This document shows positions 11,666-39,375 of a DNA stretch of 45,964 nucleotides, piece after piece (within the stretch, counting starts at the first letter, position 1; each line of letters opens with the position of its first letter). The stretch covers positions 1 through 45,964 of the forward strand of contig CAJMMH010000001.1 of NCBI GenBank assembly GCA_905214365.1, given 5' to 3'. Under the pieces are notes generated by a model that did no database searches, was not told the DNA's origin, and saw only the letters and a list, made by a program, of their open reading frames with translations. This DNA comes from an uncultured bacterium (lineage in GTDB: Bacteria; Bacillota; Clostridia; Lachnospirales; Lachnospiraceae). A program made the position numbers and the translations under genes.

Positions 11666-11680
11666 ATGTACTCGCGGAAT
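11666..11680 (-). repeat. Half copy of the ~58-nt UTR stem-loop element
   Basis: atgtactcgcggaat, 22 nt upstream of the 11643 start. Confidence 0.5.
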
Positions 11681-11683
11681 TAT

Positions 11684-12619
11684 TTAGAAGATCGACGATC
11701 CTCTTACTTTTTTCGACAATGTGTTGGCAATCAGCACCAGAATTACGCTGACGACTGATTTCCACATGCCGACCGCTGTTGCGTAGGAGATGTTGCCCTG
11801 CTGCAGTCCATACCGGTAAACGTACAGATCCAGCACTTCGATGGCGTCCTGCGTCATTGCATTAGAGAATACAAGATACTGATCAATTCCGTTGTTAATG
11901 ATGTTTCCGATCTGCAGAACAAACATAACGAAAAACGTCGGAAGAAGATGCGGCGTGGTAATATACCACATTTTCTGGAAACGTCCGGCTCCGTCAATGT
12001 TGGCCGCCTCATAGATTTCCGAGTCAATGGATGTAATTGCTGAAATATAGACAATTGCTCCCCATCCGAGTCCCTTCCAGAGATGGTAGCCAAGCATCTT
12101 CAGCCACATATGATCCGCCTGTGTCAGGAAGTTGACCGGCGTTTTAGCCGCTCCTGACTCTACCAGAAGATTGTTTACCAGTCCTTCCGTTGACAACAGC
12201 GCAAAGAACGCGGCATATACCAGTACCCAGCTGATAAAGTTCGGAATCGTTGTCAGCGTCTGCACCAGCTTCCGGTATCCCTTCCACGGAATTTCCATCA
12301 GAAACATCGCGAAAACCATCGGGAGAATCATCGTTGCCATGTACAGCAGATTGATTCCCAGGGTGTTGGACATAACGCGGAAAAACTGTCCTCTCAGCAC
12401 CGGATTATTAAACGGCGCGATAAACCACTTCCAGCCGACAAACTCACAGTCAAACAGATTCTTTCCCGGTTTATAATTGAAGAAAGAATACGACCAGCCG
12501 AGCAGCGGCAGATACGAGAAGATCAGAATTCCGATCAGAAACGGCAGCGACAGCAGAAACAGCCGGAAGCCTGCCTTCTCGCGGGGACTTGATCCCCTTT
12601 TCCTGTTTGTTTTTTGCAT
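11684..12619 (-). CDS. Carbohydrate ABC transporter permease (LplB-like)
   Basis: PNFISWV, WKGLGWGAIVYISAI, EAA loop YEAANIDGAGRFQ. Confidence 0.93.
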   Translation of the reverse strand: MQKTNRKRGSSPREKAGFRLFLLSLPFLIGILIFSYLPLLGWSYSFFNYKPGKNLFDCEFVGWKWFIAPFNNPVLRGQFFRVMSNTLGINLLYMATMILPMVFAMFLMEIPWKGYRKLVQTLTTIPNFISWVLVYAAFFALLSTEGLVNNLLVESGAAKTPVNFLTQADHMWLKMLGYHLWKGLGWGAIVYISAITSIDSEIYEAANIDGAGRFQKMWYITTPHLLPTFFVMFVLQIGNIINNGIDQYLVFSNAMTQDAIEVLDLYVYRYGLQQGNISYATAVGMWKSVVSVILVLIANTLSKKVRGSSIF

Positions 12620-12877
12620 ACCTGCACTCCCCTTTTCTTCGATGCGCTCCCAAAGCCCACACAGCGTCCACTCTTTTCAGACATACTTTTACGCTTCTTT
12701 GGGAGCCATCATTTTCTTCTGTTCTTATTATATCTGTGCAAAATGTCTCCTGTAAATTGAACTAATCTCGAAAAATAGTACACTTTTACAACTTTTTTCT
12801 TTTTTCCGTCCGCTTCTGCAGATCTTATGGGATGATAATGGAGGCTTCGCAGCAGGAATGCAGCGGCAGCCGAAATC

Positions 12878-12935
12878 ATGTGCTCCCGGAAAATCAGCCG
12901 CAAGGTCAGGTACCTAAGAAACTCCGAGAGCACAT
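12878..12935 (+). repeat. ~58-nt UTR stem-loop element, complete copy
   Basis: atgtgctcccggaaaatcag...actccgagagcacat with terminal inverted repeats; 23 nt upstream of ATG 12959. Confidence 0.85.
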
Positions 12936-12958
12936 AATCTGCAAAAGGAGGCTGTTTT

Positions 12959-14716
12959 ATGCGCCGGTCTGTTTCCCAGAAAAACTATCATTTTTTTGCC
13001 CGCATGCTTCTGATCTGTACAATCCTTCTTGCTGCGTTTTCTCTGACAGTCAGCGTCATTATCGCACATCTGTCGCACCAGTATGAAATGTCCCAGTATC
13101 TGAAGCCCTACGAGCTTGCCTCCGTCAATCTTTCAGAAACCTTTGAATCGCATTTTTCCAACTTCAGCATCCTTGCCGGAAAGGTGATGAACGGCAATCA
13201 GTGCAATCAGAATCTATGCGCGCTGTTAGAAGCAGACTCTTACGAGGAGGTCAACCCGGTTGTCCGCAACGCATGCATCCGCCTGCTTTCTTCAATCTGC
13301 AGCGACGACCGTTATCTGCGCGGTTTTCTTCTGTATTCAGAAAACGGGCCGTTGTATTATTATTCCGACTCGCAGTCTTATCTGGCGCATGTCAATCAGG
13401 CTTCCCCGTCCGTCAGACCGGTTCCGTTTATCTGTACGCCGATTCCGTTGGACGCGGCGGCCCAGATGATTCTGTCCTGCGGAGACTCCCGTTCCGGCTA
13501 CAACAGTTTTTACGGGCTCAGCGCTACGATTTTCCGGATTTCCTCTGCCCCGCTTGGCTATCTGATTCCGCTGTATTCCATTTCCGAATATACGGAGCTG
13601 CTTTCTAATTTTGATCTGAGCAAGGACAGTGTCTTCCGCATCACGGATTTAGCTGGAAATCTCTTTTTTGACTCCAATCCGTCCGCTGATACGCAAAGCG
13701 GCTCCTGGTACCGCAACAGCATCATTAACTTTACGGACGGCTTCCAGGTCTCCTATTATGCGCCGGACTCCTACCTTCCGGAAAACTCCATTACACGGCT
13801 CAGCCTTCTGCTTGCCATCCTTCTGACGCTGTTTGCATTTGTCCTGTACTATGTGACCTACTATCTTTCCAGCCGCAACATTAACCTGATTCTGGACGGT
13901 ATGAAGCGGTTCCAGCTTGACGATCTGACCTATCGGATCTCCGGCCTGACCGGCCGCAACGAATTTGCCCAGATTTCCGATGCGTTTAACGCGATGTGCG
14001 ATGAACTGCAGAAAAATGTGGAGCGGTCCTACGTCTATGAACTTCAGAAAAAGAAAAGCGAGCTTTACGCGCTTCAGACCAGTATTAATCCGCACTTTCT
14101 GTACAACACGCTGGAGATAATCCGCTCGCAGCTGATCAACGGCAACGCCGATCAGGCTTCCCGCATGATCCTGATTCTTTCCAAAATTTACCGCACACAG
14201 ACCGGAACCGGCATGTTCGCAACACTTGATCAGGAAATCGAACTGTGCGAAAACCTGATGATCCTTTATCAGCACCGCTTCCAGAATTTCGATTATGAAT
14301 TTGAACCGGACAGCGCCGCCTGCCGGTTTGCCCTGCCGAAAAACACGCTGCAGCCGCTGATTGAAAATTACTTTGTCCACGGAATCATCTCGGAACGCCA
14401 GGACAATTTCATCACGCTGTCCGCCAGTGTATTTGTCCAGAACGATCGGCAGTATATCCGTCTGACGCTTTCCAACAACGGCAAACCAATTGATCCGGAA
14501 CAGGCCGCCCAGCTGGAAAAGCGTCTCTCTGAAAGCATCTACAACCAGACAAATACCAACGGCTTTGCGCTCACCAATGTGCTCAGCCGTCTCCGGATTG
14601 TCTTCCAGAATGACTGTAGCCTCCGCATCGTTTCGCCGGACGATCCTGACATGTCATTCTGCATCGAGCTTATCTTTCCGGCAAAAACAGCAGAACAATT
14701 AAAGGAGTCCTTCTGA
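12959..14716 (+). CDS. YesM-type sensor histidine kinase
   Basis: Two TM segments, HAMP (NEFAQISDAFNAM), H-box QTSINPHFLYNTLE, LQPLIENYFVHG. Confidence 0.9.
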   Translation: MRRSVSQKNYHFFARMLLICTILLAAFSLTVSVIIAHLSHQYEMSQYLKPYELASVNLSETFESHFSNFSILAGKVMNGNQCNQNLCALLEADSYEEVNPVVRNACIRLLSSICSDDRYLRGFLLYSENGPLYYYSDSQSYLAHVNQASPSVRPVPFICTPIPLDAAAQMILSCGDSRSGYNSFYGLSATIFRISSAPLGYLIPLYSISEYTELLSNFDLSKDSVFRITDLAGNLFFDSNPSADTQSGSWYRNSIINFTDGFQVSYYAPDSYLPENSITRLSLLLAILLTLFAFVLYYVTYYLSSRNINLILDGMKRFQLDDLTYRISGLTGRNEFAQISDAFNAMCDELQKNVERSYVYELQKKKSELYALQTSINPHFLYNTLEIIRSQLINGNADQASRMILILSKIYRTQTGTGMFATLDQEIELCENLMILYQHRFQNFDYEFEPDSAACRFALPKNTLQPLIENYFVHGIISERQDNFITLSASVFVQNDRQYIRLTLSNNGKPIDPEQAAQLEKRLSESIYNQTNTNGFALTNVLSRLRIVFQNDCSLRIVSPDDPDMSFCIELIFPAKTAEQLKESF

Positions 14717-14748
14717 CGCGCGCAGCAGCGCGTTTTGAAGGACTCCTT
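14702..14748. terminator. Inverted repeat between convergent genes
   Basis: aaggagtccttc/gaaggactcctt with inner acgcgc/gcgcgt. Confidence 0.65.
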
Positions 14749-14751
14749 CTA

Positions 14752-15657
14752 TTATCCGGTCTGCGGTTCCTGTGCCATATGCTCTTCGGTTCCGTTCTTT
14801 TTTCCTCTCCGCAGCTCGCTCGGCGTCATCTGATACTGCCGCCGGAACAGCCGGTTAAAATAGGACACAGACTCAAACCCGGCTTCAACAGCAACCTGGG
14901 CAATCGGCTTTCTGGTTGCCCGCAGCAGATATGCCGCATACTCAATCCTCATCTGTTCAATATATGAAAAAATCGTCCGGCCGGTCGCTTCCCGGAAACA
15001 TTTACACAGGTAATTCCGACTGACCGCCGCCTGCTCTGCCAACGCATCCAGCGTAATTTCTTCCGTCAGATGGCTGTCAATGTAGGCAATGACGCGCTCA
15101 AGCCGCTCAAATCCCGCGCCGTTTTCCGTATTTTCTCCGATTGCCTGTGACTCCTGATAATGCCGGTACAAAAGTGCCAGCAGCAGATGAAGCGCGGATT
15201 CCATTACCATACTGCTGCCTCTGCCGTTACGCTCTTCCCGCTTCATGCAGGAAAATGCTTCATACATAGACGCATAATCCGCGGCGTCTTCGGCAATCCG
15301 GTTGGAAAACTGCTCATTCCGATGAAAAAACGGTTTCAGATAATCATTTCCATGCCGCTCCTGCCACAGCGGGCTCGATTCAAACAGAAGCACTGTCAGC
15401 CTCAGCTCTTCCCTGCCGTGCAGCGCCAGATGCAGTTCTGAATTATTGATTACAAAAATATCGCCCTTCCGGACCGGATAGACCTTTCCGCCGATAATAT
15501 AGGTTCCGCTCCCTCGCTCCACCAGATTCAGTTCCAGGCAGTTATGGCAGTGCAGCTGCTTCTGCTCCTGGGAAATGGTAAAAAGGCGGCAACGGAAGTC
15601 CCCTGAAAAATCAAAGAACTCCCGCTCAAAGTTTGATGCTTCTTCCTGCCTCATCAT
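14752..15657 (-). CDS. AraC-family regulator (cupin plus HTH)
   Basis: LHCHNCLEL cupin motif; AVSRNYLCKCFR and AGFESVSYFNRLF. Confidence 0.9.
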   Translation of the reverse strand: MMRQEEASNFEREFFDFSGDFRCRLFTISQEQKQLHCHNCLELNLVERGSGTYIIGGKVYPVRKGDIFVINNSELHLALHGREELRLTVLLFESSPLWQERHGNDYLKPFFHRNEQFSNRIAEDAADYASMYEAFSCMKREERNGRGSSMVMESALHLLLALLYRHYQESQAIGENTENGAGFERLERVIAYIDSHLTEEITLDALAEQAAVSRNYLCKCFREATGRTIFSYIEQMRIEYAAYLLRATRKPIAQVAVEAGFESVSYFNRLFRRQYQMTPSELRRGKKNGTEEHMAQEPQTG

Positions 15658-16742
15658 AATACGATATTTCTGCGCTCCAGAATATCCGCAATTTTAACAA
15701 CCTGACCAGTTCTCATTGCCTCATCCATTGCTTCCATAACTGCCAGCGTACGGATGCCTTCCTTCAGATCCGGCTTCGGTGTTCTTCCTGCCAGAACATC
15801 CTGCGCATACTCTTCAATATAATTCTGATACTCGCCGGCATGATGAGTCTCGCCTTCAAAACGGAAGAAGTATCCGTGCATATCCTCATAAGAATGAATC
15901 TCCGCGTCATGCTGTGTCGGCGGGAAATTAGTTAAGTAGGTCAGCTTTGGATATCCGGCACGGCTGATTCCCTTGCTTCCGCGCAGGGTGCAGCTGATAT
16001 TCTGCTCTCTGCCGCTGCCGAGAGTCGGAGTTGCATAAGCTCCGGTTACTTCTGCCATACGGCCATCCTTATTCTTTAACAGGAAGCTCATCGTATCCGG
16101 TACGTCCAGACCGCGCTCCTTCGTGTTCTCGCTGACAACGCCGCTTCCGTATACCTCAACGATATCCGGCAGATACCATACCGCAAGGTCTACCGCATGA
16201 ATCATAAAATTGTACATCCAGGAGAATCCCTTCTGATGGCTCCATGCACGCTCCAGAAACCACCGGGAATCGCTGATATAATGAGTCTGTACCAGCTCCA
16301 GCTCACCATGCTTTCCCGCCAGGTAATCCTGATGCTGTCTGCGTGCCGGCTCAAAGTAACGGGAGCTCTGTCCAACAAACACAATGCGTCCAGTACGCTT
16401 CTGAACCTCAAGAAGGTCATTTGCCTCATCCAGATTAATCATCAGCGGCTTCGTGCAGATAACATCCTTTCCTGCCTCCAGCGCCATCTTAATGTGCGTT
16501 GCGTGCAGCTGATCCGGTGTGTAAATTCCAATAACATCGATTGACGGATCTGCCAGCATCTCTTCATATTTTGTGGTATAATGGTCAAATTTGAACTCTT
16601 CGCAGCGATGCTTGCACAGCTCCTCGTTCAGATCACAGATATTGCCGAGAGTCCAGTACTTGCTCTGCAGTACCGCAGACATAATACTTCTTCCCTCTCC
16701 CAGTCCAAGTACACCCATAGAAAATGTCTTCTGTTCGCTCAT
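15654..16742 (-). CDS. Gfo/Idh/MocA-family oxidoreductase
   Basis: GVLGLGEG Rossmann motif, YTPDQLHATH, ICTKP, IHAVD. Confidence 0.9.
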   Translation of the reverse strand: MSEQKTFSMGVLGLGEGRSIMSAVLQSKYWTLGNICDLNEELCKHRCEEFKFDHYTTKYEEMLADPSIDVIGIYTPDQLHATHIKMALEAGKDVICTKPLMINLDEANDLLEVQKRTGRIVFVGQSSRYFEPARRQHQDYLAGKHGELELVQTHYISDSRWFLERAWSHQKGFSWMYNFMIHAVDLAVWYLPDIVEVYGSGVVSENTKERGLDVPDTMSFLLKNKDGRMAEVTGAYATPTLGSGREQNISCTLRGSKGISRAGYPKLTYLTNFPPTQHDAEIHSYEDMHGYFFRFEGETHHAGEYQNYIEEYAQDVLAGRTPKPDLKEGIRTLAVMEAMDEAMRTGQVVKIADILERRNIVL

Positions 16743-17065
16743 AGCTGTCTATTCCTTCTGTTCGGACCGGCCATTTTCTGATTGATGACCTTCCGCCTTT
16801 CTCTGATTTTTACGTTCCAAGCATAACAGATTTTTCCGCATTTGTCTTGTCTTACATGCAGCAAAACTTGCACAATATTACGCATTTTCTTTAAGTACGC
16901 TTTCTAAAACAATTATCCTTGCGCGTCCCGATGCGCAGGCAAATCAATTTTCCTTGGATTTTTTATAAGGTGTTGAAATTTCAACCGACTTTCCTTTATA
17001 ATTATATTATAACGATGTTGGGGGCAAAAGATATTTTGACGTTTCTGCAGGCTTCCGAAACAATA

Positions 17066-17126
17066 ATGTGCTCTCGGAATCTCGCTGTACCTAAATTTAC
17101 GAGAAAGCTTTTCATCAGAGGCACAT
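17066..17126 (-). repeat. ~58-nt UTR stem-loop element (reverse orientation)
   Basis: atgtgctctcggaatctcgctgtacct...gaggcacat; 37 nt upstream of ATG 17164. Confidence 0.8.
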
Positions 17127-17163
17127 AAGAAGTACACAATAATAAGAAAAGAGGAACTGATTT

Positions 17164-17757: not shown

Positions 17758-17762
17758 AGTCT

Positions 17763-18377: not shown

Positions 18378-18402
18378 ACGGCGTCCTTGCCGTAATTTAT
18401 CA

Positions 18403-18459
18403 ATGTGCTCCTGGAATCTCTTATGTGCCTGTTCTTCCACCTGGATTTCGGGAGTATAT
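18403..18459 (-). repeat. ~58-nt stem-loop element in the 3' UTR
   Basis: atgtgctcctggaatctcttatgtgcctg...gatttcgggagtatat. Confidence 0.75.
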
Positions 18460-18601
18460 TTTATTTTCCGCCGCGGCAGGGACTCGCCTGATTACCATTT
18501 GCCAATAGGATTTTCGGCAGTAGGTCTTGACACCTCCTCGCTTTTATACTATAACATTTGTGTATTATCAATAACGATATGTTTGTTTTTTTGTTTATTT
18601 T

Positions 18602-18656
18602 ATCGCATTCCGGCGGATTTATCTATTTCAAATTCAACGAAACCCCGGAAGCACAT
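18602..18656 (+). repeat. Degenerate ~58-nt UTR element
   Basis: 3' half caacgaaaccccggaagcacat vs consensus caacgagattccgagagcacat; 21 nt upstream of ATG 18678. Confidence 0.5.
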
Positions 18657-18677
18657 TTTTCAGAAATGGAGTGTCTC

Positions 18678-20918: not shown

Positions 20919-20971
20919 TCTGAATTGCATCCTTTCTTTGCCGATTGTTTCCGGTTATTTTTCACACGCTC

Positions 20972-21135
20972 AGAGCGTATTTGAAAAAGGCTTTCTGCAA
21001 GATGTGCGTCACAATTTGCGGGAGATTTTGCACAAATGAAGGCGTCGTAGTGGACTACGACAACCGAATTTGGGCAAAAGATATCGCAAATTGGGGCGTG
21101 CAGATTGCGGGAATGATTTTTCAAACACGCTCTAG
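20972..21135. mobile_element. Complete ~165-bp non-autonomous MITE
   Basis: 17-bp TIRs agagcgtatttgaaaaa / tttttcaaacacgctct (1 mismatch), central hairpin gtcgtagt-gg-actacgac, no credible ORF, several partial copies in the window. Confidence 0.85.
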
Positions 21136-23456: not shown

Positions 23457-23474
23457 CTATGATAATCTCACAAG

Positions 23475-23510
23475 GTTCCTTGTGTATCTGTCTTTTCGGC
23501 TGATTTTCCG
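23475..23510 (-). repeat. Internal remnant of the ~58-nt element
   Basis: tgtgtatctgtcttttcggctgattttccg is close to the reverse complement of the 39319 copy interior. Confidence 0.5.
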
Positions 23511-23528
23511 CTGAAGACCTTTAATCTT

Positions 23529-26803: not shown

Positions 26804-26820
26804 ATGTGCTCCCGTAATCT
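26804..26820 (-). repeat. Half copy of the ~58-nt element
   Basis: atgtgctcccgtaatct, directly between the stop codon and the terminator. Confidence 0.55.
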
Positions 26821-28470
26821 TTATTTGTTCTTTTCCGCAAGGCAAAAAATCCGTTCTCCGCCAAGCCACGTCTCCTGTACCGGAATCTTTGCCAGCTCAT
26901 GCGCCGGAACGCAGAATGGATTCTGCGCAAGCACGGTAAAGTCTGCCAGCATTCCCGTGCGGATATCTCCCTTGATATCTTCCTCAAAGGACGCATACGC
27001 ACCGCCTGTCGTAAAGGAATCCAGCGCCTGCTTTACGGTCATCGCCTGATCCGGACGATACGGTGCAAATGTGCCTGCCAGATCCTGTCTGGTAACAGCG
27101 CACTGGATTCCCCGCAGCGGCACCGGAAGCTCAACCGGCGCGTCTGATCCGTTGGACATGGAAATTCCCATTTCCGGATAACAGCTGCCGCCGTAACTGG
27201 ACGCGGCAAGCGTTTCTCCTGCTCGTTCTCTGACAATCCGAATATCATAATCCAGGAAAATGGACTGAATATACCCATGAACGCCAAGCTCCTTAAACCG
27301 CTCATAATGTTCCGGACGCATCAGCTGGCAGTGAACGATTCCGTGACGGTGATCGCTGCGCGGAAACGCCTGAATTGCCTCTTCATACGCGTCAAGTACG
27401 CCGTCCACACAGCCGTCTCCGATCGCATGCACCGCGACCTGCATGTTGTGCGTATGCGCAAGCATTACCAGCTTCTTCAGCTTTTCCGAAGAAGCAACCA
27501 GCATTCCTTTTTCTTCCGGCTGATCTGCATATGTTTCTCTCATATACGCGGTTCTCGCGCCAAGTGAACCGTCTCCGATAATCTTCAGCGGTCCGATCTT
27601 GAACATCGTATCGCCAACGCCCGTCGTATATCCTTCATCCAAAAACTCCTGCAGCTGTTCCGGCTCCTGCAGCTGGCTCTGCTCGTTGACACGCACCGTC
27701 AGAAGTCCGTCCCGGATCAGCTCCCGGTATGCCTGGATTACCGTTCTCCAATTTACGGAAGGCAGCGTAATAAAATCATCTGTCTGTACAGAAGTAATTC
27801 CCTGACGGTTTACCCAGTGTGCTGCTTCTACGAGCATATGCTTTACATCCTCAATGGTATATGTCGGGAGGCAGGCATTGACGCATTCAATCGCGTTTTC
27901 AAAGAACCAGCCGGTCGGCACGCCATTTGCATCGACCTGGATTTCTCCGCCGTCAACCTCCGGAATCTCCGATACCGTGCGGCTTCCGTCCGGATTCGCG
28001 GTTTCCAGTCCCATCAGCTCCAGCGCTTTTGAATTGACCGCGCAGATATGTCCGCAGGTGCGGTTCAGCATAATCGGGACCTCTTCCGACACCAGATCCA
28101 GATCGTGCCGGTCCGGAAACCGCTTTTCTCCACTGAAATAATCCTGATTGACACCCATCGCAACCATCCACTGACCTGGCTTCAGCTCATGCTCCGCGGC
28201 AAACTGCTTCAAGCCATCCTGTACCTGCTCCATGCTGCCAGTCTGCGTGCTCAGATCCGCAACCACCTGGCACTCGCCGAAATGAAGCAGATGCATATGA
28301 GAATCATTGAATCCCGCGCAGACAAACTGCCCCTGCAGATCGGTTACTTCTCCCTCATACTTCGCTGCCTCTTCATTGCTGCCGACATAAACAAATCGGT
28401 CCCTGTCCACAACAAACGCTTCCTTCATTCCATCTTGTGTATATACCAGTCCATTCGTAAAAATCTTCAT
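26821..28470 (-). CDS. YtcJ-like amidohydrolase (Amidohydro_3)
   Basis: GFNDSHMH, GHICAVNS, DGSLGARTA, VHAIGD, IVHCQ, GSDAPV, GMLADFTVL. Confidence 0.92.
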   Translation of the reverse strand: MKIFTNGLVYTQDGMKEAFVVDRDRFVYVGSNEEAAKYEGEVTDLQGQFVCAGFNDSHMHLLHFGECQVVADLSTQTGSMEQVQDGLKQFAAEHELKPGQWMVAMGVNQDYFSGEKRFPDRHDLDLVSEEVPIMLNRTCGHICAVNSKALELMGLETANPDGSRTVSEIPEVDGGEIQVDANGVPTGWFFENAIECVNACLPTYTIEDVKHMLVEAAHWVNRQGITSVQTDDFITLPSVNWRTVIQAYRELIRDGLLTVRVNEQSQLQEPEQLQEFLDEGYTTGVGDTMFKIGPLKIIGDGSLGARTAYMRETYADQPEEKGMLVASSEKLKKLVMLAHTHNMQVAVHAIGDGCVDGVLDAYEEAIQAFPRSDHRHGIVHCQLMRPEHYERFKELGVHGYIQSIFLDYDIRIVRERAGETLAASSYGGSCYPEMGISMSNGSDAPVELPVPLRGIQCAVTRQDLAGTFAPYRPDQAMTVKQALDSFTTGGAYASFEEDIKGDIRTGMLADFTVLAQNPFCVPAHELAKIPVQETWLGGERIFCLAEKNK

Positions 28471-28473
28471 ATC

Positions 28474-29479: not shown

Positions 29480-29532
29480 ATGTGCTCTCGGAATCCCGTT
29501 GTGCCTGAACTTACAGAATTCCAAGAGGACAT
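29480..29532 (-). repeat. ~58-nt UTR stem-loop element
   Basis: atgtgctctcggaatcccgttgtgcctgaactt...gaggacat; 22 nt upstream of the mscS GTG. Confidence 0.8.
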
Positions 29533-29654
29533 GAACATCGCTGCCCGAATCGCTTTCTTAAATAAAGGTACAACGTGTCCGCATAAAATGCAAGAGGAAG
29601 TCTGAAAAAGTCAAAGATTAACCATTTCTCTTTTTCCTTTGCCGCGGTATACTG

Positions 29655-29670
29655 GATTCCGAGAGTACAT
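29655..29670 (+). repeat. 3' half of the ~58-nt element
   Basis: gattccgagagtacat just after a TATACT -10 candidate, 31 nt upstream of ATG 29702. Confidence 0.6.
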
Positions 29671-29701: not shown

Positions 29702-31072
29702 ATGGGTATCGCTTCTTCCAAATCTGTTTCCTCAAAAAACAGCCGTCTGATGACAGAAGGAAACATTCTGCCGCAGTTAGTTCTGTTTGCGCTCCCTCTT
29801 CTGGTCGGAAATCTGTTTCAGCAGCTTTATAATACGGTAGACAGTATTGTTGTCGGAAACTATGTCAGCAAAACCGCGCTGGCAGCCGTTGGTTCTACAG
29901 ACTGTATTGTCAATTCGATTATCGGCTTTTTTGCCGGACTTGCTACTGGTGCCGGCGTTGTTATTTCCCACAGCTTCGGAAGCCGCGATGACAAGGCAGT
30001 TCACCGGGCAGTTCATACAACTATTGCCCTGACCTTTGTGCTGGCTGTTTTCTTTACTATCATCGGCCTGATTCTGTCTCCTGTTTTCCTGCGGCTCATG
30101 GATACGCCGGAAGATGTGTTCCCGGAATCTTCCCAATACCTGAGTATTTATTTTGCCGGAATTTCCGGTCTGATGCTCTACAACATGGGTTCCGGAATCC
30201 TGCGGGCAGTCGGAGACTCCAGGCGGCCGCTCTACATCCTGATTGTCTGTGCGGTTTCCAACATTATTCTTGACCTGGTATTTGTTATTTATTTCCATGC
30301 CGGTGTCGCAGGCGTAGCCTGGGCTACGGTCATCTCCCAATGGATCTCCGCAATTCTGGTTCTGGTAATCCTGACCCGTGAAACCAGTTCTTACCGCCTG
30401 ATCTGGAAGGATTTGCGGATTGACCGGAGTACCGTTGTCTCTATCTTCCGAATCGGTTTTCCTGCCGGTCTTCAGATGGCTGTTACTTCATTTTCTAACG
30501 TTTTTGTTCAATCCTATATCAACCATTTCGGTTCTTCCTGCATGGCAGGATGGACGACCTACGGAAAGCTGGATAAGTTCTGCCTGCTTCCGATCCAGAG
30601 TATTGGTCTCTCCGTCACTACCTTTGTCGGCCAGAATCTCGGCGCAGGAAACACGAACCGTGCCAGACAGGGAACACGGACTGCAGTTCTTCTTGCGGAA
30701 GCCGCTGCCGCAATCCTGATGGTTCCGGTGCTTCTGTTTGCCCCGTTCCTTGCTTCTTTATTTAACCAGGATCCGGAAGTTCTTGAATATGGCGTATGGT
30801 TTATCCGTCTGATGATGCCGTTTTATTTTGCCATCGGCTTTAATCAGATCTATGCCAACGCACTGCGCGGAGCCGGAAACTCCACTGCTCCAATGGTGAT
30901 TATGATGGGAAGCTTTATCGTATTCCGCCAGATTTATCTCTTCATCATTTCCAGATGTTTTAACACCGTAACTGCCGTTGCCCTCGGATATCCGCTCGGA
31001 TGGATTCTCTGCAGTATCATTCTCTTCTTCTATTATCACAAAGTCGGGCTGACCTTAAAAAAAGTGGTTTAA
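29702..31072 (+). CDS. MATE efflux transporter
   Basis: GNLFQQLYNTVDSIVVG, ILRAVGDS, TFVGQNLGAG. Confidence 0.92.
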   Translation: MGIASSKSVSSKNSRLMTEGNILPQLVLFALPLLVGNLFQQLYNTVDSIVVGNYVSKTALAAVGSTDCIVNSIIGFFAGLATGAGVVISHSFGSRDDKAVHRAVHTTIALTFVLAVFFTIIGLILSPVFLRLMDTPEDVFPESSQYLSIYFAGISGLMLYNMGSGILRAVGDSRRPLYILIVCAVSNIILDLVFVIYFHAGVAGVAWATVISQWISAILVLVILTRETSSYRLIWKDLRIDRSTVVSIFRIGFPAGLQMAVTSFSNVFVQSYINHFGSSCMAGWTTYGKLDKFCLLPIQSIGLSVTTFVGQNLGAGNTNRARQGTRTAVLLAEAAAAILMVPVLLFAPFLASLFNQDPEVLEYGVWFIRLMMPFYFAIGFNQIYANALRGAGNSTAPMVIMMGSFIVFRQIYLFIISRCFNTVTAVALGYPLGWILCSIILFFYYHKVGLTLKKVV

Positions 31073-31122: not shown

Positions 31123-31167
31123 AATCTGGCTGTGCGGCAAATGATTCTCCGTACGGCCAGTTTCTAT

Positions 31168-31212
31168 ATGTACTCTCGCAAAGCCAGGCACAACGAGACT
31201 CCGAGAGCACAT
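31168..31212 (+). repeat. ~58-nt UTR element (shortened)
   Basis: atgtactctcg...caggcacaacgagactccgagagcacat; 20 nt upstream of ATG 31233. Confidence 0.8.
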
Positions 31213-31232
31213 TTATGATGTTAGGAGGGTTT

Positions 31233-32555: not shown

Positions 32556-32634
32556 TCGCTTCCAGAACGTGTTTCCGGCAGGATTTACCTGCCGGTTTTT
32601 TTCGGTGTAATTTTCCATGAAGAAAAAAAGGATC

Positions 32635-32663
32635 TTGCCACAAAGGGCAGTCTGGTGTATGAT
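32635..32663 (+). promoter_or_regulatory. Sigma-A promoter of the kinase-isomerase operon
   Basis: TTGCCA-N17-TATGAT. Confidence 0.6.
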
Positions 32664-32708
32664 GATAGAAGCAGATATGAGCGCAAACACGCTTTTTAGG
32701 AGGTAAAC

Positions 32709-34112
32709 ATGGCAGCATATTATCTGGCAGTAGATATTGGCGCGTCCAGCGGACGCCACATTCTGGGACACATGGAAAATGGAAAGATGATCCTGGAAGA
32801 GATTTACCGTTTCGAGAACGGCATGGTTAAAAAGGACGGCGAACTTTGCTGGGAATTTGACCGTTTGTTCCGTGAAATCGTAAACGGCATGAAGAAATGT
32901 AAGGAAATCGGCAAGATTCCGGTCAGCATGGGAATCGATACCTGGGGCGTTGACTTTGTTCTTCTGGACAAGAATGACAACGTACTCGGCAATACCGTTG
33001 GTTACCGTGATCACCGCACAGACGGCATGGATGAAGAGGTTTACAAGATCATCTCTCTGAAGGATCTGTACGCGAGAACCGGTATCCAGAAGGCCATTTT
33101 CAACACGATCTATCAGCTGATGGCCGTAAAGAAAAAGCATCCGGAGTATCTGGAGCAGGCGGAGACGCTGCTTCACGTACCGGATTACTTCCACTATCTT
33201 CTTACCGGCAAAAAGACCTGCGAGTACACGGAAGCAACCACCGGCCAGCTGGTAAGCCCGATTACCAAGGATTGGGATTATGAGCTGATCGATATGCTCG
33301 GCTACCCGAAGAAGATCTTCCAGAAGCTGATCATGCCGGGAACAAGCATCGGCAGCCTGACCGATGAAATCAAGAAGGAGGTCGGCTTCGATCTTGAGGT
33401 TGTCGCTCCTGCTACCCACGACACCGGCTCCGCAGTTCTGGCGGTTCCGGCCAATGACGACGACTTCATTTATATCAGCTCCGGCACCTGGTCCTTGATG
33501 GGAATCGAGCGCAAAGAGGCTGACTGCTCCGAAAAGAGCTGCAGTATGAACTTCACCAACGAAGGCGGCTATGAAGGACGTTTCCGTTACCTGAAGAATA
33601 TTATGGGTCTGTGGATGATCCAGTCTGTCCGCCACGAGTTCAACGATGCCTACAGCTTCGCCCAGATCTGCGAGATGGCGGAAGCGGCAAAGGACTTCCC
33701 GTCCAGAGTTGACGCGAACGATGAGTGCTTCCTTTCTCCGGACAATATGACCGAAGAGGTGAAGGACTACTGCCGCAGAACCGGCCAGAAGGTTCCGGAA
33801 ACCCTCGGCGAGATTGCTACCGTTATCTATACCAGCCTTGCGGAGTGCTACGCAAAGACCGCGAAAGAGTTGGAAGAGATGACCGGAAGAACCTACAGCC
33901 GCATCCACATTGTCGGCGGCGGTTCCAACGCGGGCTACCTCAATGAACTGACTGCAAAGGCAACAAAGAAGGAAATCCATGCCGGTCCGGGCGAGGCAAC
34001 CGCAATCGGAAATATTACCGCCCAGATACTCAAAGCAGGCGAGTTTTCCAGCGTCGAAGAGGCCCGCACCACGATCCATGAGTCCTTCGGCATTAAAGTA
34101 TATCAGGCATAA
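32709..34112 (+). CDS. rhaB: Rhamnulokinase/fuculokinase-like FGGY kinase
   Basis: LAVDIGASSGR, IDTWGVDF, YRDHRT, THDTGSAV, SSGTWSLMG, FTNEGG, LKNIMGLW, GPGEATAIGN. Confidence 0.85.
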   Translation: MAAYYLAVDIGASSGRHILGHMENGKMILEEIYRFENGMVKKDGELCWEFDRLFREIVNGMKKCKEIGKIPVSMGIDTWGVDFVLLDKNDNVLGNTVGYRDHRTDGMDEEVYKIISLKDLYARTGIQKAIFNTIYQLMAVKKKHPEYLEQAETLLHVPDYFHYLLTGKKTCEYTEATTGQLVSPITKDWDYELIDMLGYPKKIFQKLIMPGTSIGSLTDEIKKEVGFDLEVVAPATHDTGSAVLAVPANDDDFIYISSGTWSLMGIERKEADCSEKSCSMNFTNEGGYEGRFRYLKNIMGLWMIQSVRHEFNDAYSFAQICEMAEAAKDFPSRVDANDECFLSPDNMTEEVKDYCRRTGQKVPETLGEIATVIYTSLAECYAKTAKELEEMTGRTYSRIHIVGGGSNAGYLNELTAKATKKEIHAGPGEATAIGNITAQILKAGEFSSVEEARTTIHESFGIKVYQA

Positions 34113-34135
34113 TCAAACAAATTGGAGGTTCTGAC

Positions 34136-35554
34136 ATGTTAGTTAACACAAAAGCAAGAGTTGGTGTATTTTCCATCGCTTTAGGCGCATACCTTCCTCA
34201 GTTCCCGTCTCTGGTTCCGGAGTTCGAGGCTCAGTACGCAGCATTCAAAAAGACCCTTCCGGATACCGTAGAGATCATTGACGGCGGCATGGTTACCACC
34301 AAAGAGCAGGCAATGGCTGCAGGCGACAAGTTCCGCGCCGCAGACGTTGATCTGGTATTCCTTCAGATGCTGACCTACGCAACTTCCTACAACATGCTTC
34401 CGGCAATCCGCGACCTGGATGTTCCGGTTGTTCTGGTAAATGTTCAGAAGCTGAAGGCTCTGGACTATGAGCATACCGATATCGCGTCCTGGCTGGGCGA
34501 AGGCTACGCGTGCGGCGCTGTCGGCGAGGCTGTTGCCGATCTGGAGCGCGCAGGCAAGAGACATGCTGTTATCACCGGTGTTGTTGAAGGCGGAGATCCG
34601 GCTGTTCAGGCTGAGATTGAGGACTGGTGCAAGGCTGCTCAGGTAAGAAGAAGATTCCGCGATACCAACATCGCTCAGATCGGAAGACCGTATCCGGGTA
34701 TGATGGATCTGTATATCGACGAGACCAACCTGTACAACCGCATGTTCCTGTACACCAAGCAGTTTGACTGGGAGAAGATGTGGGCAATCGCTGACAACAT
34801 CACCGATGAGGAAGCAATCCGTGCAAAGGCTCAGGATATTCTGGATACCTTCGAGATCGAGGGCGGCGGCACCATCGAGAAGGTATGGGAGATGGCAAAG
34901 TATGTCGTTGCATTTGAGCAGTGGGTTAAGGACGAGCATCTCGGCCTGATCGCTTCTCACTACGACGGATTCGCACAGGGCAAGGCCGGCGTTCTTGACT
35001 CCATGCTGATCCCGGCATTCTCCATGCTGATCAAGCAGGGAACCGCATGCGCTGTTGAAGGCGACATGAAGGTTGCGATGGCAATGAGCATCTTAAAGAC
35101 CATCTCCGGCACCGGCCAGCTGTCCGAGATGTACTCCATCGACTTCAACGACGATATCTGCATCATCGGCCACTCTGGAAGCGGCGACGCTGATATCTCC
35201 GCAAAGAAGCCTACTATGAAGATCGTTAAGGTATTCCACGGCAAGACCGGCGGCGGCTACCTGACTCAGTTTTATCCGTACACCGGCCCGGTTACCTACC
35301 TGGCTATCACTCAGGACGCTGACGGCCACTTCAAGTTCGTTGTTGCAGAGGGCGTAAACGAGGAAGGACCGATCCTTTCCTTCGGCGACACCAACATGAG
35401 AACCCGCTTCACCTGCGGCGCAAGAGAGTTTGTAAACCGCTGGAGTGAGGCAGGCCCGACCCATCATATGGCAGCTGCCTGCGGCAGACATATCGATACC
35501 ATCCTGAAGGTTGCCAAGATCCTCAATGTTCCGGTTGAGATCGTAACCAGATAA
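34136..35554 (+). CDS. L-arabinose/L-fucose isomerase-family protein
   Basis: CAVEGD, LSEMY, IIGHSG, GPTHHM correspond to the AraA-type E/E/H/H metal-ligand pattern; strongly biased codon usage. Confidence 0.8.
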   Translation: MLVNTKARVGVFSIALGAYLPQFPSLVPEFEAQYAAFKKTLPDTVEIIDGGMVTTKEQAMAAGDKFRAADVDLVFLQMLTYATSYNMLPAIRDLDVPVVLVNVQKLKALDYEHTDIASWLGEGYACGAVGEAVADLERAGKRHAVITGVVEGGDPAVQAEIEDWCKAAQVRRRFRDTNIAQIGRPYPGMMDLYIDETNLYNRMFLYTKQFDWEKMWAIADNITDEEAIRAKAQDILDTFEIEGGGTIEKVWEMAKYVVAFEQWVKDEHLGLIASHYDGFAQGKAGVLDSMLIPAFSMLIKQGTACAVEGDMKVAMAMSILKTISGTGQLSEMYSIDFNDDICIIGHSGSGDADISAKKPTMKIVKVFHGKTGGGYLTQFYPYTGPVTYLAITQDADGHFKFVVAEGVNEEGPILSFGDTNMRTRFTCGAREFVNRWSEAGPTHHMAAACGRHIDTILKVAKILNVPVEIVTR

Positions 35555-35586
35555 TAAACATATCGCCGAATATTTCATTCGCATCG

Positions 35587-35630
35587 AAAAAAGGCAGCGA
35601 AGCACATTTCCATTGCTTCGCCGCCTTTTT
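35587..35630. terminator. Bidirectional terminator
   Basis: aaaaaa-ggcagcgaagca/tgcttcgccgcc-ttttt. Confidence 0.8.
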
Positions 35631-35652
35631 ATTTTCTCTGCACTGCTTTTGT

Positions 35653-35952
35653 TTACTTCTGTCCTTCCGCCGTCTTCTGTTTTTTGCCTGCTTCGGCTTT
35701 TTCAGCGGCACACTTCTGCTTCTTCTGATCCCGGTCCATCTGGTACATCAGGTAATCCAGACAGTCCACGCACTTCTGCCCTTCATGAATTGACTCCATC
35801 AGCGTCCTTCGGTGCTGCTCAAGCAGCTTCCTGCACTCGCGTTCCTTTCCCTGCCGGGCAGCATCACAAAACGCGGCAATTTTCTTTTCGCAGCAGCCTG
35901 CGTCCTTTAAGTTCCGAATCATATCTTCATCTGGCGTTTTGTTCTGCATCAT
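35653..35952 (-). CDS. Small conserved clostridial hypothetical protein
   Basis: IRNLKDAGC...LLEQHRRTL...QKCVDCLDYL pattern, recalled from clostridial proteins; SD AAAGGA; divergent from LysR. Confidence 0.7.
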   Translation of the reverse strand: MMQNKTPDEDMIRNLKDAGCCEKKIAAFCDAARQGKERECRKLLEQHRRTLMESIHEGQKCVDCLDYLMYQMDRDQKKQKCAAEKAEAGKKQKTAEGQK

Positions 35953-36088
35953 CCTGTCCTTTCCGCCGCTTTGCAGCGTCTTTTCTTCATCTGCTTTCTG
36001 CTCACGCTGCGCAAAAAACGCAGCATTTTCTGTTTATAGTATAGCCGTTCCGTACCAAAACAACAAATACTTATCTTTCATATTCTGT

Positions 36089-36123
36089 TATGCTTGACCG
36101 GCATAGCAGATTTCTGCTATACT
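36089..36123. promoter_or_regulatory. LysR T-N11-A box overlapping the lysR promoter
   Basis: TATGC-N7-GCATA at 36089-36105; TTGACC-N18-TATACT at 36094-36123. Confidence 0.65.
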
Positions 36124-36140
36124 TCAGCTGCACGCCTGTC

Positions 36141-36186
36141 ATCTCTCAAAACCCCATTGTGCCTGAGAGAGATTTCGGAAGCCGAT
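36141..36186 (-). repeat. Degenerate ~58-nt UTR element
   Basis: ctctcaaaaccccattgtgcctga...gatttcggaagccgat; about 22 nt upstream of ATG 36209. Confidence 0.45.
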
Positions 36187-36208
36187 GCCAAAGAAGGGAG
36201 GAACTTTT

Positions 36209-37138
36209 ATGGAGCTTCGTGTTCTTGAATATTTTCTCGCTGTTGCCAGAGAACAGAGCATTCTCGGAGCTGCGGAGTCACTGCATTTATCCCAGCCAAC
36301 GCTTTCCCGTCAGCTGAAGGATCTTGAAACAGAACTGGGAAAGCAGCTCTTCCTTCGCGGAAACCGAAAAATTACGCTGACGGAGGAAGGGATGATTCTG
36401 CGTAAGCGCGCGGAAGAAATTCTCGATCTGGTCCGCAAAACAGAGGATGAGGTTGCCTGCTCCGATGATGCGGTCAGCGGAGAAATCTACATCGGCGCGG
36501 CGGAAACGGACGCGATCCATCTGATTGCCCGCACAGCAAAACAGCTGCGGAATGAATATCCGCAGCTGCGATTCCGTATCTCCAGCGGAGATGCCTGTGA
36601 CGTGCTGGAGCTTCTTGATAAAGGTCTGATTGATTTCGGCGTGCTGTTTGAGCCGCTTTCTCTGGAAAAATATAATCACCTGACGCTCCCCGTCCGCGAT
36701 ACCTGGGGCGTACTGATGCGCCGCGATTCCCCGCTTGCTGCGAATGAAAGCGTGAGTCCGGAGGATCTGTGGGGCAAGCCGCTGATTCTTTCCAGACAAT
36801 ATAAGGACGGAAGCGATCTCTCGCTCTGGCTCGGCCGCAACCTCTCTGACCTGAATGTAGCGGCCACCTATAGCCTGATTTACAATGGTTCCATCCTCGT
36901 TGATGAAGGAATCGGCTATGCGCTTTGCCTTGATCATGTGATCAATACCTGCGGAAACAGCCACATCTGTTTCCGCCCGCTTTCCCCGAAGCTGGAAATC
37001 GGAAGCCAGCTGATCTGGAAGCGCTACCAGGTTCATTCCAGAGCCGCCCAGCTGTTCTTAGATCGTCTACAGGAATCACTGCAGTCTCCTATAAATCCTT
37101 CACTGACAGCGCGCGGATTGCATTCAGTACCGCAATGA
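36209..37138 (+). CDS. LysR-family transcriptional regulator
   Basis: MELRVLEYFLAVARE, AAESLHLSQPTLSRQLKDLE, LTEEG, GLIDFG. Confidence 0.95.
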   Translation: MELRVLEYFLAVAREQSILGAAESLHLSQPTLSRQLKDLETELGKQLFLRGNRKITLTEEGMILRKRAEEILDLVRKTEDEVACSDDAVSGEIYIGAAETDAIHLIARTAKQLRNEYPQLRFRISSGDACDVLELLDKGLIDFGVLFEPLSLEKYNHLTLPVRDTWGVLMRRDSPLAANESVSPEDLWGKPLILSRQYKDGSDLSLWLGRNLSDLNVAATYSLIYNGSILVDEGIGYALCLDHVINTCGNSHICFRPLSPKLEIGSQLIWKRYQVHSRAAQLFLDRLQESLQSPINPSLTARGLHSVPQ

Positions 37139-38960
37139 CCATAACGCCGACATCCGCGAAGATTGCCGCCCACATGTTGGCAACGCCGATCGCGCCGAGG
37201 AACAGACAAATGATTTTCACGCCGATTGCAAAGTAAATGTTCTCATATACGATCCGCAGGCACTTGCGGGAAATGCGGATTGCTTTTGAAATTTTAACCG
37301 GATCATCGTCCATCAGGACAACATCCGCAGCCTCAATTGCCGCATCTGAACCAAGTGCGCCCATTGCAATACCGATATCTGCACGGGAAAGTACCGGAGC
37401 GTCATTGATGCCGTCACCGACAAATACCAGTTTTTCCTTCTCCGTCTTCGCCCGCAGCAGCTGCTCTACCTTTTCAACCTTGTCGCCCGGAAGAAGCTCG
37501 CTGTAAACCTGATCAATGCCAAGCTCCTTTGCCGTCTGATCCGCAGCCGCCTTACGGTCGCCGGTCAGCATCACAGTTTTACGGATTCCCGCACGCTTCA
37601 GTTCTGCAATTGCTTCCTTCGCCGTCGGCTTCGTGCGGTCAGAAATCAGGATATGACCCGCATACTTGCCGTCTATTGCCATATGCACAACGGTTCCCAC
37701 ACTATGACACTCCATCGGTTCGATGCCAAGGCTTCTCATCAGTTTACCATTTCCAGCTGCAACGGAAACTCCGTCAATCTTTGCAATCACGCCGTTTCCG
37801 CTGATTTCCTGTACATCGCTGACACGGTTCTTATCAATCGGCTTGCCGTACGCTTTCTGCAGGCTCAGACTGATCGGATGGTTTGAAAAACTCTCTGCAT
37901 GAGCAGCAAGCTCCAGAAGCTTCTCATTCTCCATCGTACTGTGATGGATTCCGCTGACCTCAAATACGCCCTGCGTCATCGTACCAGTCTTATCAAATAC
38001 AACAATCTTTGTTCCCGCAAGCGCTTCCAGATAGTTGGAACCCTTGACAAGCACACCCGCCTTGCTGGCTCCGCCGATTCCGGCAAAGAAGCTTAACGGA
38101 ATACTGATAACCAGCGCGCACGGACAGCTGATAACCAGGAAGGTCAGCGCACGGAAAATCCATTCGTTCCACTCCGGAGACACATGAAGAAATATAATCC
38201 GGAACAGCGGTGGCAATACCGCAAGGGCAACCGCGCCATAGCAGACAGCCGGGGTATAGTACTTTGCAAATTTAGAAATAAAGTTCTCAGATCTCGACTT
38301 CTTTGAGCTTGCGTTCTCAACCAGATCAAGAATCTTGGATACAGTAGACTCACCAAACTCTTTTGTCGTACGGATCTTAATCAGACCGGACATATTGATA
38401 CAGCCGCTGATAATCTCATCGCCGACACTGGCATCTCTCGGTACACTTTCACCGGTCAGCGCGCTGGTATTCAGCGTTGTCTTCCCTTCGGTAATCACGC
38501 CGTCAATCGGCACCTTTTCGCCAGGCTTTACAACAATTATCGTACCGATCTCAACCTCATCCGGATCGACCTGCTCCAGATCGCCGCTCTCTGTTTCTAC
38601 ATTTGCATAATCCGGACGGATATCCATCAGATCACTGATATTGCGGCGGCTCTTGCCCACTGCATAGCTCTGGAACAGCTCGCCGATCTGATAAAACAGC
38701 ATAACGGCAACGCCTTCCTGGTAATCGCCGAGCGCAATTGCTCCGATCGTTGCGACTGCCATCAGAAAATTCTCGTCAAATACCTGACGGTTCATAATTC
38801 CCTTTCCCGCCTTAATCAGGATGTCATATCCGATCACTAAGTACGGGATCATATACAGTGCTGCGCGCACAAATCCTTCGACAGGAAGGAAATGCAAAAC
38901 AATCATACATACTGCCGCAATGATGATGCGGATCAGAACCTTCTTCTGCTTTTTGTTCAT
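37089..38960 (-). CDS. cadA: P1B heavy-metal (Zn/Cd/Pb) translocating ATPase without an N-terminal HMA domain
   Basis: LTGESVP, ISCPCAL, DKTGT, SNHP, GDGINDAP, FADVG; start MNKKQ after AAGGAGG. Confidence 0.92.
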   Translation of the reverse strand: MNKKQKKVLIRIIIAAVCMIVLHFLPVEGFVRAALYMIPYLVIGYDILIKAGKGIMNRQVFDENFLMAVATIGAIALGDYQEGVAVMLFYQIGELFQSYAVGKSRRNISDLMDIRPDYANVETESGDLEQVDPDEVEIGTIIVVKPGEKVPIDGVITEGKTTLNTSALTGESVPRDASVGDEIISGCINMSGLIKIRTTKEFGESTVSKILDLVENASSKKSRSENFISKFAKYYTPAVCYGAVALAVLPPLFRIIFLHVSPEWNEWIFRALTFLVISCPCALVISIPLSFFAGIGGASKAGVLVKGSNYLEALAGTKIVVFDKTGTMTQGVFEVSGIHHSTMENEKLLELAAHAESFSNHPISLSLQKAYGKPIDKNRVSDVQEISGNGVIAKIDGVSVAAGNGKLMRSLGIEPMECHSVGTVVHMAIDGKYAGHILISDRTKPTAKEAIAELKRAGIRKTVMLTGDRKAAADQTAKELGIDQVYSELLPGDKVEKVEQLLRAKTEKEKLVFVGDGINDAPVLSRADIGIAMGALGSDAAIEAADVVLMDDDPVKISKAIRISRKCLRIVYENIYFAIGVKIICLFLGAIGVANMWAAIFADVGVMVIAVLNAIRALSVKDL

Positions 38961-38985
38961 AGCAGCTGCCCTCCTTGATTGTTCA

Positions 38986-39041
38986 ATGTACTCCCGGAAT
39001 CTTTTTATGTTTACCTTTCCGTGAAAATTACGAGTGTACAT
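38986..39041 (-). repeat. ~58-nt UTR stem-loop element
   Basis: atgtactcccggaatct...cgagtgtacat; 25 nt upstream of the cadA ATG. Confidence 0.75.
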
Positions 39042-39053
39042 CTTTCCTCTTTT

Positions 39054-39112
39054 CATATGAACAATTATTCATATGTTTAAGCTTATTATAACATGATTCC
39101 ATCTTCTGTCAA
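39054..39112 (-). promoter_or_regulatory. cadA promoter with an ArsR/SmtB (CzrA-like) operator
   Basis: TTGACA-N16-TATAAT with TG extension (39112-39085); palindrome CATATGAACAATTATTCATATG at 39054-39075. Confidence 0.8.
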
Positions 39113-39163
39113 GAGCTTTTCTTTTTTTCCTGCAAAATTCTTTCTGAAAATCCGTTCCTGTCC

Positions 39164-39203
39164 AGAGCGTGCTTTAAAAATCATTCCCGCAATCTGCACG
39201 CCC
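39164..39203 (-). repeat. Right end of the ~165-bp MITE
   Basis: agagcgtgctttaaaaaatcattcccgcaatctgcacgccc is close to the reverse complement of 21094-21133. Confidence 0.8.
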
Positions 39204-39318
39204 GGTAACGTGCGGGCAAAAACACTGTCCTTGATTTTCCATCCGTTTTCCAATATAATCCCTTGCTTTCCAAAAACCGGCATGATAAAGTTTATATCAT
39301 AAAAACGCAATATGCGAA

Positions 39319-39375
39319 ATGTACTCCTGGAAAATCAGCTGCAAAACAGATACATATGAGATTCCGAGCGTACAT
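39319..39375 (+). repeat. ~58-nt UTR stem-loop element, complete copy
   Basis: atgtactcctggaaaatcagctgc...gagattccgagcgtacat; 24 nt upstream of ATG 39400. Confidence 0.85.

Follow-up and report, generated by a model that had tools for sequence, protein, structure and literature searches.

Relics of a hairpin transposable element at a fixed distance upstream of Shine-Dalgarno motifs in an uncultured Lachnospiraceae bacterium, and a candidate partner insertion sequence family

The stretch of DNA considered here, referred to as the window, comprises 45,964 nucleotides of an uncultured bacterium of the Lachnospiraceae (contig CAJMMH010000001.1 of assembly GCA_905214365.1, positions 1 to 45,964, forward strand) and is the longest contig (C1) of the 2.9-Mb, 444-contig assembly that was analysed as the genome. 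For one housekeeping protein, the closest relatives come mostly from Lachnospiraceae, with 79-86% identity. Between positions 11,666 and 39,375 the window carries a family of short stem-loop repeats, many of which lie just in front of genes. A sequence-only reading of the window had listed 13 such places, and the copies and their distances to the start codons were recovered as claimed (22, 23, approximately 37-38, 21, 22, 31, 20, 22, 25 and 24 nt), as were the genes it had named, namely three MATE genes and those for MscS, a P-type ATPase, a histidine kinase and a response regulator. However, the sharp constant, overlooked in that reading, is not the distance to the start codon but the distance to a GG[AG]G motif, the Shine-Dalgarno (SD) motif of most of the target genes. 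The repeats belong to a family of MITEs (miniature transposable elements with inverted repeats), and this family sits with one tip 11 nt (±1) upstream of GG[AG]G. The 13 places are listed below with the class assigned to each from its alignment, bases being counted outward from the tip of the element (+12 is outward base 12).

11666..11683, single terminal repeat; GGGG at +12; score 17.8, with 0.03 matches expected in the window; 22 nt from the start of an ABC permease gene (10714-11643, minus strand)
12878..12935, 58-nt deletion derivative, 51/58 identical to a full copy, with an AATC target duplication; GGAG at +12; 23 nt from the histidine kinase start (12959)
17066..17125, 60-nt derivative (E 1.9e-8) upstream of the gene (17164) for a 4Fe-4S protein; GG[AGT]G missing at +11 to +13
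18403..18459, 57-nt derivative that follows a stop codon; GG[AGT]G missing at +11 to +13
18602..18656, degenerate, weak copy; GGAG at +12; score 14.9, with 0.18 matches expected by chance in the window; 21 nt from the response regulator start (18678)
23474..23522, internal fragment covering element positions 13-61 (E 0.0016), with no intact tip
26804..26821, single terminal repeat that follows a stop codon, with GGAG at +12 inside a terminator-like stem, with no open reading frame (ORF) behind it
29480..29532, 53-nt derivative; GGAG at +12; mscS start (29457, minus strand) at 22 nt
29653..29670, single terminal repeat, with a MATE start (29702) 31 nt downstream; GG[AGT]G missing at +11 to +13; no counterpart seen in the leaders of 8 congeners
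31168..31212, 45-nt derivative of a recurrent micro-homology deletion class, 44/45 identical; GGAG at +12; 20 nt from a MATE start (31233)
36141..36186, possible very decayed copy, non-significant alone (1.5 expected by chance); GGAG at +11; 22 nt from the start of a LysR-family gene
38986..39041, 56-nt derivative; GGAG at +12; P-type ATPase start (38960, minus strand) at 25 nt
39319..39375, 57-nt derivative; GGGG at +12; MATE start (39400) at 24 nt

As a family the 13 places lie far beyond chance, but their quality is uneven and some are weak or non-significant when taken alone. Seven are short copies with both ends (12878, 17066, 18403, 29480, 31168, 38986 and 39319) and three are single well-scoring ends (11666, 26804 and approximately 29653-29670). 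GG[AG]G starts at outward base 12 in eight places and at base 11 in one, which together make up 9 of the 13, including the place at 26804. The element density of the window is about twice the genome average of 5.6 loci per 46 kb. A further strong match to the terminal repeat at 30114-30131 lies inside a MATE coding sequence, without a partner end or the SD offset, and is probably a coding coincidence.

A parent with the same ends is present elsewhere in the genome, measuring 162-164 bp and represented by 50 copies with both ends, which fall into two subfamilies of 35 and 15. The ends are 17-bp inverted repeats, ATGTRCTCTCGGARTCT, and the body between them folds back on itself. A profile search gave 354 matches at E<=1e-3 as opposed to none in a Markov-3 control genome, and the matches merge into approximately 356 loci; 87 of the 888 contig ends fall within an element. 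Among the 49 full copies with flanks, direct repeats of 4 bp were found 25 times and of 5 bp five times, one copy being counted twice, which gives a target duplication of 4-5 bp in 29/49 copies where approximately 1.2 would be expected (1.0 for 4 bp and 0.15 for 5 bp, as estimated from mismatched flanks). With inverted ends, target duplications, a short length, no transposase gene and many dispersed copies, the repeats are MITEs. The window copies match both ends of the parent around an internal gap: the seven two-ended copies align with the full element at 46/56 to 44/45 identity across an internal deletion, so that the window repeats are internally deleted relics of the 163-bp MITE. One short class of 41-48 nt, nearly all of 45 nt (31 copies), recurs and joins two short internal repeats, and tandem copies of the element are separated by gaps of 1-6 nt. 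The genome scan and the check for target duplications proposed with the sequence-only reading thus favoured one of its two options, a MITE that targets leaders, which can now be sharpened to an SD motif at a fixed offset.

The offset of the motif was measured without gene calls, because the gene caller itself scores the SD. Of 459 ends, 103 have a GGAG that begins at outward base 12, 21 have one at base 11 and 22 at base 13, and no outward base other than these three holds GGAG in more than 13 ends. In the 97 two-ended copies, GG[AG]G was found at bases 11-13 on one side in 60, compared with 3.6% of random intergenic positions, and outside this genome the motif stands at +11 to +13 in 40 of 46 distinct full-length sites. 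A sequence logo of 42 duplication-validated sites is A-rich over 11 bases, followed by G-G-A/G-G on one side only, although the sites were oriented by their G-richer flank, a choice that favours one-sidedness; the duplicated target bases themselves are AT-rich. A target that merely resembles the element's own end is disfavoured, since GGAG occurs at +12 in 102 cases and GGAA in 7, and the target is A-rich where the element end has TCTC. These positional statistics are strong.

An ORF lies behind the motif in 146 of 169 ends, and we count such targets as true SDs. This is compatible with an indirect form of targeting, in which the transposase docks on a host factor present at translation-initiation regions, such as the ribosome, a coupled RNA polymerase or an SD-binding protein; contact with the polymerase has been proposed for promoter-targeting elements such as TnGBS, as far as the available part of the source goes (PMC3942029). 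However, the offset is tighter to the motif (89/162 at one base) than to the start codon (spread over 20-27), and motifs in terminator stems are targeted as well: at 23 ends the motif stands at +11 to +13 without an ORF behind it, several of them in terminator-like stems, where 3.6 would be expected. We regard indirect targeting as unlikely, though it is the most serious of the alternatives.

A second alternative is that the element is an ordinary MITE with an AT-rich target, whose proximity to SDs results solely from purifying selection, insertions into ORFs, SDs and promoters having been lost. The AT-rich duplications are in keeping with this, as is the origin of all data from surviving insertions, and of 451 ends only 15 fall well within called genes, the genome being 86% coding, so that either selection or targeting excludes ORFs. 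On the other hand, the peak is one base sharp, although the host intergenic regions, with the element discounted, have a median length of 141 nt. No such peak is shown by a second hairpin MITE family of this genome, which served as a control and has 2, 2 and 4 of its 186 ends at bases 11, 12 and 13. The one-base peak, the flat control family and the targets without an ORF together disfavour selection alone, which we consider improbable. Repeats of this second family lie in the window at 2494-2570, 8733-8843 and approximately 20945-21135; its elements are long hairpins of about 165-185 bp with ends TAGAGCGTGTTTGAAAA and a central GC hairpin, and they have the same architecture without the SD offset.

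A transposase with matching ends was found in other genomes. When five element-rich genomes were scanned for DDE_Tnp_1 genes, two insertion sequence (IS) contigs of genome G148 (L291 and L298) with MITE-like tips emerged, and the family to which they belong consists of elements of 1.8-2 kb that encode an IS1182-like DDE transposase of about 500 aa and whose ends share the core TCTCGGAATCT with the MITE; the left end of one member (L393) is identical to the MITE end at 16/17 bases, and intact transposases occur in the L330 and L324 types, whose ends come nearest to those of the MITE. Relatives of the transposase were detected in 31 of 400 genomes of the Lachnospiraceae, in 29 of 351 genomes of a phylum-wide sample, on 5 plasmids and at 12 loci of a viral collection, and the family forms 714 clusters at 50% identity with E<=1e-30. 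Flanks were taken from 77 loci, which were the best-scoring ones of each search rather than all matches, and yielded 45 distinct left and 43 distinct right flanks; the ends were placed by a weight matrix that was seeded from the same loci but blind to the flanks. GG[AGT]G occurs at 11-13 nt in 35/45 left flanks and in 0/43 right flanks, a strict polarity that also speaks against selection as the only cause and implies that the target gene reads away from the transposase gene. Target duplications of 4-7 bp were present in 23 of the 35 elements with both flanks. An unclassified IS family thus shares with the MITE its end core, similar duplication lengths and the same offset, and from this we infer the link between the two.

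In the transposase, D222 and E455 are invariant and D329 is nearly so, E455 standing in the context R-x3-E-R-x3-R (R451-x3-E455), and there are two Cys-rich inserts; a Cys-rich insertion spans approximately residues 360-440 of L291. The predicted structure (pLDDT 86) has Tn5 transposase as its closest fold (Z 16.4, root-mean-square deviation 4.3, 295 aligned residues), and a sequence search of the PDB gave nothing useful. Pfam DDE_Tnp_1, with the DDE core of the IS4/IS5 clan, was matched over its cut-off, as was DDE_Tnp_1_6 in L291, while DUF772 remained below the cut-off in L298. The NCBIfam IS1182 model was matched by 26/27 members, the best with 76.7 bits against a cut-off of 270, so that the family is not filed in IS1182; the ISLre2, IS256 and ISKra4 models were not among the NCBIfam matches of the 27 members at E<=0.1. 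Two of the four plasmid copies are annotated merely as hypothetical protein. Two IS copies (L327 and L364) sit immediately next to the end of another member of the family, as would be expected of two insertions at one SD. In genome G045, several right ends of this IS family coincide with contig breaks (L139, L144, L149 and L154), which suggests a multicopy, unassembled and active IS. A further IS group in G148 (L275, L280, L282 and L283) has CAATGTCA ends and shares with the present family an unusual upstream TTGACA...ATGTGCGG promoter-like layout.

A copy of the target motif also lies within the left end of the IS itself. C[ACT]CC, reading inward, lies at 61-76 (peak 63-68) in 50/52 left ends and in 0/45 right ends, and control windows gave 1-5. 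Read on the outward strand, this box is the target motif and has the sense of the SD that is targeted; inspection by eye showed no start codon consistently behind it, which is difficult to reconcile with docking of the transposase on a host factor of translation initiation. Members of the Lachnospiraceae clade have a TTGACA box roughly 20 nt deeper inside the element, and a simple sigma-A scan revealed no outward promoter signal above shuffles in the IS left ends or the MITE. The MITE inserts in both orientations, and the box is absent at either tip from all 50 full copies. One hypothesis is that a single motif-binding surface of the transposase uses both the target and the internal box, and that the internal site sets the orientation. 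The broader proposal, that a phylum-wide DDE family reads the SD motif in double-stranded DNA and that its own left-end copy polarises the transpososome and perhaps controls its own promoter, is a tentative one, to which we give slightly less than an even chance.

Among known systems, IS900-type IS110 elements insert at ribosome-binding regions, between the SD and the start codon, unlike the insertion upstream of the SD described here, and they use DEDD recombinases and are not known to have such inverted ends or duplications. Insertions of TnGBS/ISLre2 elements share one orientation and lie 15-17 bases upstream of sigma-A promoters (-35 boxes), according to the available part of the source (PMC3942029). 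As described there, TnGBS and ISLre2 (p-MULT 3) and the ISKra4 group resemble the present family in being DDE systems that keep a fixed distance to an expression signal, with the orientation set by the asymmetry of the ends and ORFs spared; they differ in being Mutator-like, whereas the partner IS is Tn5/IS1182-like, keys on GG[AGT]G at +12 and has a copy of its target motif inside the left end. IS1182 (IS1272) provides the only IS model matched by nearly all members, with DDE_Tnp_1 and DDE_Tnp_1_6 domains and a similar size, but its members are said, in the accessible text, to target palindromes or stem-loops (PMC5678879), unlike the SD-like motif and normal target duplications found here. 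The MITE itself is comparable to Correia/NEMIS, ERIC, RUP and bcr1, which measure 100-170 bp, have inverted ends, target duplications and fold-back RNA, occur in many intergenic copies and are moved in trans, bcr1 with compensatory changes. It differs from these in its ends and duplication length, and the parts of the sources consulted describe hairpin MITEs near genes and effects of RNases without mentioning a fixed SD offset (PMC10969869, PMC3184786, PMC3049150). No description of the family or of its targeting rule was found in the literature searched, most subscription journals and ISfinder lying outside the search, nor of the family in the available parts of PMC7986276, PMC9208149 and bioRxiv 10.64898/2026.10.21.760802. 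A MITE with its cognate IS is thus a known kind of system, and what is apparently new is the fixed-offset, polarised SD targeting by an unclassified DDE family with an internal motif.

A REPIN-like element moved by an HUH (Y1) transposase via a single-stranded hairpin would also fold back over its whole length with a preferred strand and form tandem copies. The 4-5-bp duplications do not agree with this, the ends correspond to those of a DDE family that follows the same rule for its targets, and the Y1 loci of five element-rich genomes are not bounded by such ends, which makes this origin highly improbable. Other candidates for the partner were rejected. End pairs spaced 1645 bp and 2763 bp apart proved to be separate short copies around host genes, the Y1 and other DDE_Tnp_1 loci of the five genomes lack the ends, except L291 and L298, and the IS3-type element on contig C414 of this genome has other ends; the latter (L095, G000:C414) appears intact and consists of a single fused 523-aa ORF.

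The spread of the MITE across genomes is patchy. A BLAST search with a full copy found no match in 40 relatives, including 12 congeners, or among plasmids. When one mismatch was allowed, the end pattern matched in 65 of 400 genomes of the family, mostly as single matches, and 12 genomes of unrelated genera hold 4-65 matches each. Foreign examples that were retrieved are elements of 160-164 bp with the same ends and duplications, and 24 of 46 distinct full-length sites in other genomes and metagenomes show duplications of 4-5 bp. In the leaders of the MATE orthologues of 8 congeners and of 7 mscS homologues, no element was seen by eye and a profile search gave short matches only; the congener leaders are too diverged from those of this genome to be aligned. 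Such a patchy distribution fits a mobile element and not an inherited regulator. In a 326-bp copy from another genome (L108:1527-1852, G131:C55), a hairpin element of about 165 bp with TAGTACAGCG-type ends is apparently nested in the MITE.

Several observations weigh against the interpretation as a MITE directed to SD motifs by this IS family. Neither a profile search nor tblastn detected the partner transposase or a fragment of it in this assembly. The MITE ends and the transposase co-occur only weakly: a strong transposase match is present in 3 of the 12 genomes with at least 4 end-pattern matches, as compared with 31/400 overall, and five of ten end-rich genomes that were searched again with an alignment gave no transposase match. 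The MITE and the IS share the terminal repeat only, the body of the MITE being without a counterpart in the IS. At the sites themselves, 20 of 52 full copies have no GG[AGT]G at +11 to +13 on either side, GG being present there in 44/52. Among the 23 targets without an ORF, some may belong as SDs to genes that are short or broken, and two of the targets are the ends of neighbouring elements; moreover, all sites are survivors of selection. No empty site was found at locus L002 among the matches listed for contigs of 4 runs, and in one of these runs contigs enter the element from both sides, so that it is present there too.

The other option of the sequence-only reading was a domesticated cis-regulatory RNA that defines a post-transcriptional regulon, and the hairpin itself offers some reason to consider it. 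In an alignment of 21 copies, two from this genome and 19 from other genomes or metagenome contigs, mostly chosen as non-redundant, both partners change in 30 of 58 predicted pairs, compared with 17.6 in shuffles (0/500 of which reach 30) and no more than 10 in slid controls; the pairing scheme comes from this very alignment, and many of the changes are contributed by five related sequences. Through G-U pairs, one strand folds better in 49/50 copies of this genome and in 16/16 outside copies. Among the short copies, the SD is faced by the intact end in 13 cases and by the stub in 4, and related MITEs are described, in the part of the source available, as changing mRNA processing (PMC10969869).

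Against this, both strands enter mRNAs, and the less stable one does so slightly more often, with 61 vs 36 ends inside this genome and, among full copies, 12 vs 7 and 23 vs 15 (the latter outside). Something has kept the body paired, either as a single strand or by renewal through arm-to-arm copying, but selection on the present leaders as such does not account for this, because mRNAs carry the weaker strand at least as often and little of the covarying body survives in the window copies. In the first 11 bases of 28 short copies, the tips facing the SD are no better conserved than the far tips (19 vs 18 mismatches). The covariation claimed for the terminal stem did not hold up, as the tips match at position 5 in only 16/46 short and 21/53 full copies. 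Nor did the common orientation claimed for the copies preceding genes, which fails genome-wide: because the ends are inverted repeats, either tip reads alike in the mRNA, and by alignment to the parent the end turned towards the gene is one in the copies at 29480, 31168 and 38986 and the other in those at 12878, 17066 and 39319. The Rfam check, covering the window, full copies and IS loci, gave no family at the gathering score, generic miRNA-hairpin matches lying far below it, and folding of six window leaders showed no consistent state of the SD. Together with the failure to find the element in the 40 relatives or to see it in the orthologous leaders inspected, this leaves a regulon with a very small probability, slightly below that of selection alone; local effects on individual mRNAs are possible.

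The best explanation of the whole, to which we assign a probability of roughly 85%, is that the window repeats are relics of a MITE that was moved in trans by a transposase aiming at the SD motif. A member of the partner IS family, no longer in this assembly, would have supplied the transposase. The transpososome may recognise GG[AGT]G in the target DNA, together with the A-rich stretch before it, about one helical turn from the cut, which would place the insertion just 5' of the ribosome-binding site and leave the SD, the start codon and the ORF intact. With less confidence, the left-end box at 62-71 nt may offer a second site to the part of the transposase that reads the motif and so fix the orientation of the IS, and the MITE, being without the box, would then go in either way. 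After insertion, long hairpins would collapse by deletion between short internal repeats to stem-loops of 43-60 nt such as those of the window, and repeated insertions at one SD would result in tandem copies separated by 1-6 nt.

Few bacterial transposases are known to pick their targets by an expression signal, the documented case in the portion of the source consulted being the promoter targeting of TnGBS/ISLre2 (PMC3942029). Targeting just upstream of the SD would be a different safe-harbour rule, in which the ORF and the ribosome-binding site are spared and foreign sequence is placed in the 5' leader. It would explain a leader-enriched hairpin family without a regulon and calls for caution in the discovery of RNA motifs in gut Clostridia. 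The element precedes 178 of 2393 called genes (about 7%). If the interpretation is correct, a protein-only, single-gene integrase targets 5' leaders and its MITEs have put hairpins before a corresponding share of the genes. Such an integrase could serve as a compact tool to place promoters or riboregulators directly before genes in Bacillota.

Two further features were observed in the window. A solo TnpB/Cas12f-like gene (42150-43379), with no TnpA beside it, lies within 42050-43600; its hairpin ends are of the IS200/605 type, and a likely RNA region follows downstream. A third repeat family is located at approximately 2585-2750 and at 4655-4705, with a near-identical pair of 40 nt at 2710 and 4666, and is often fused to the second MITE family.

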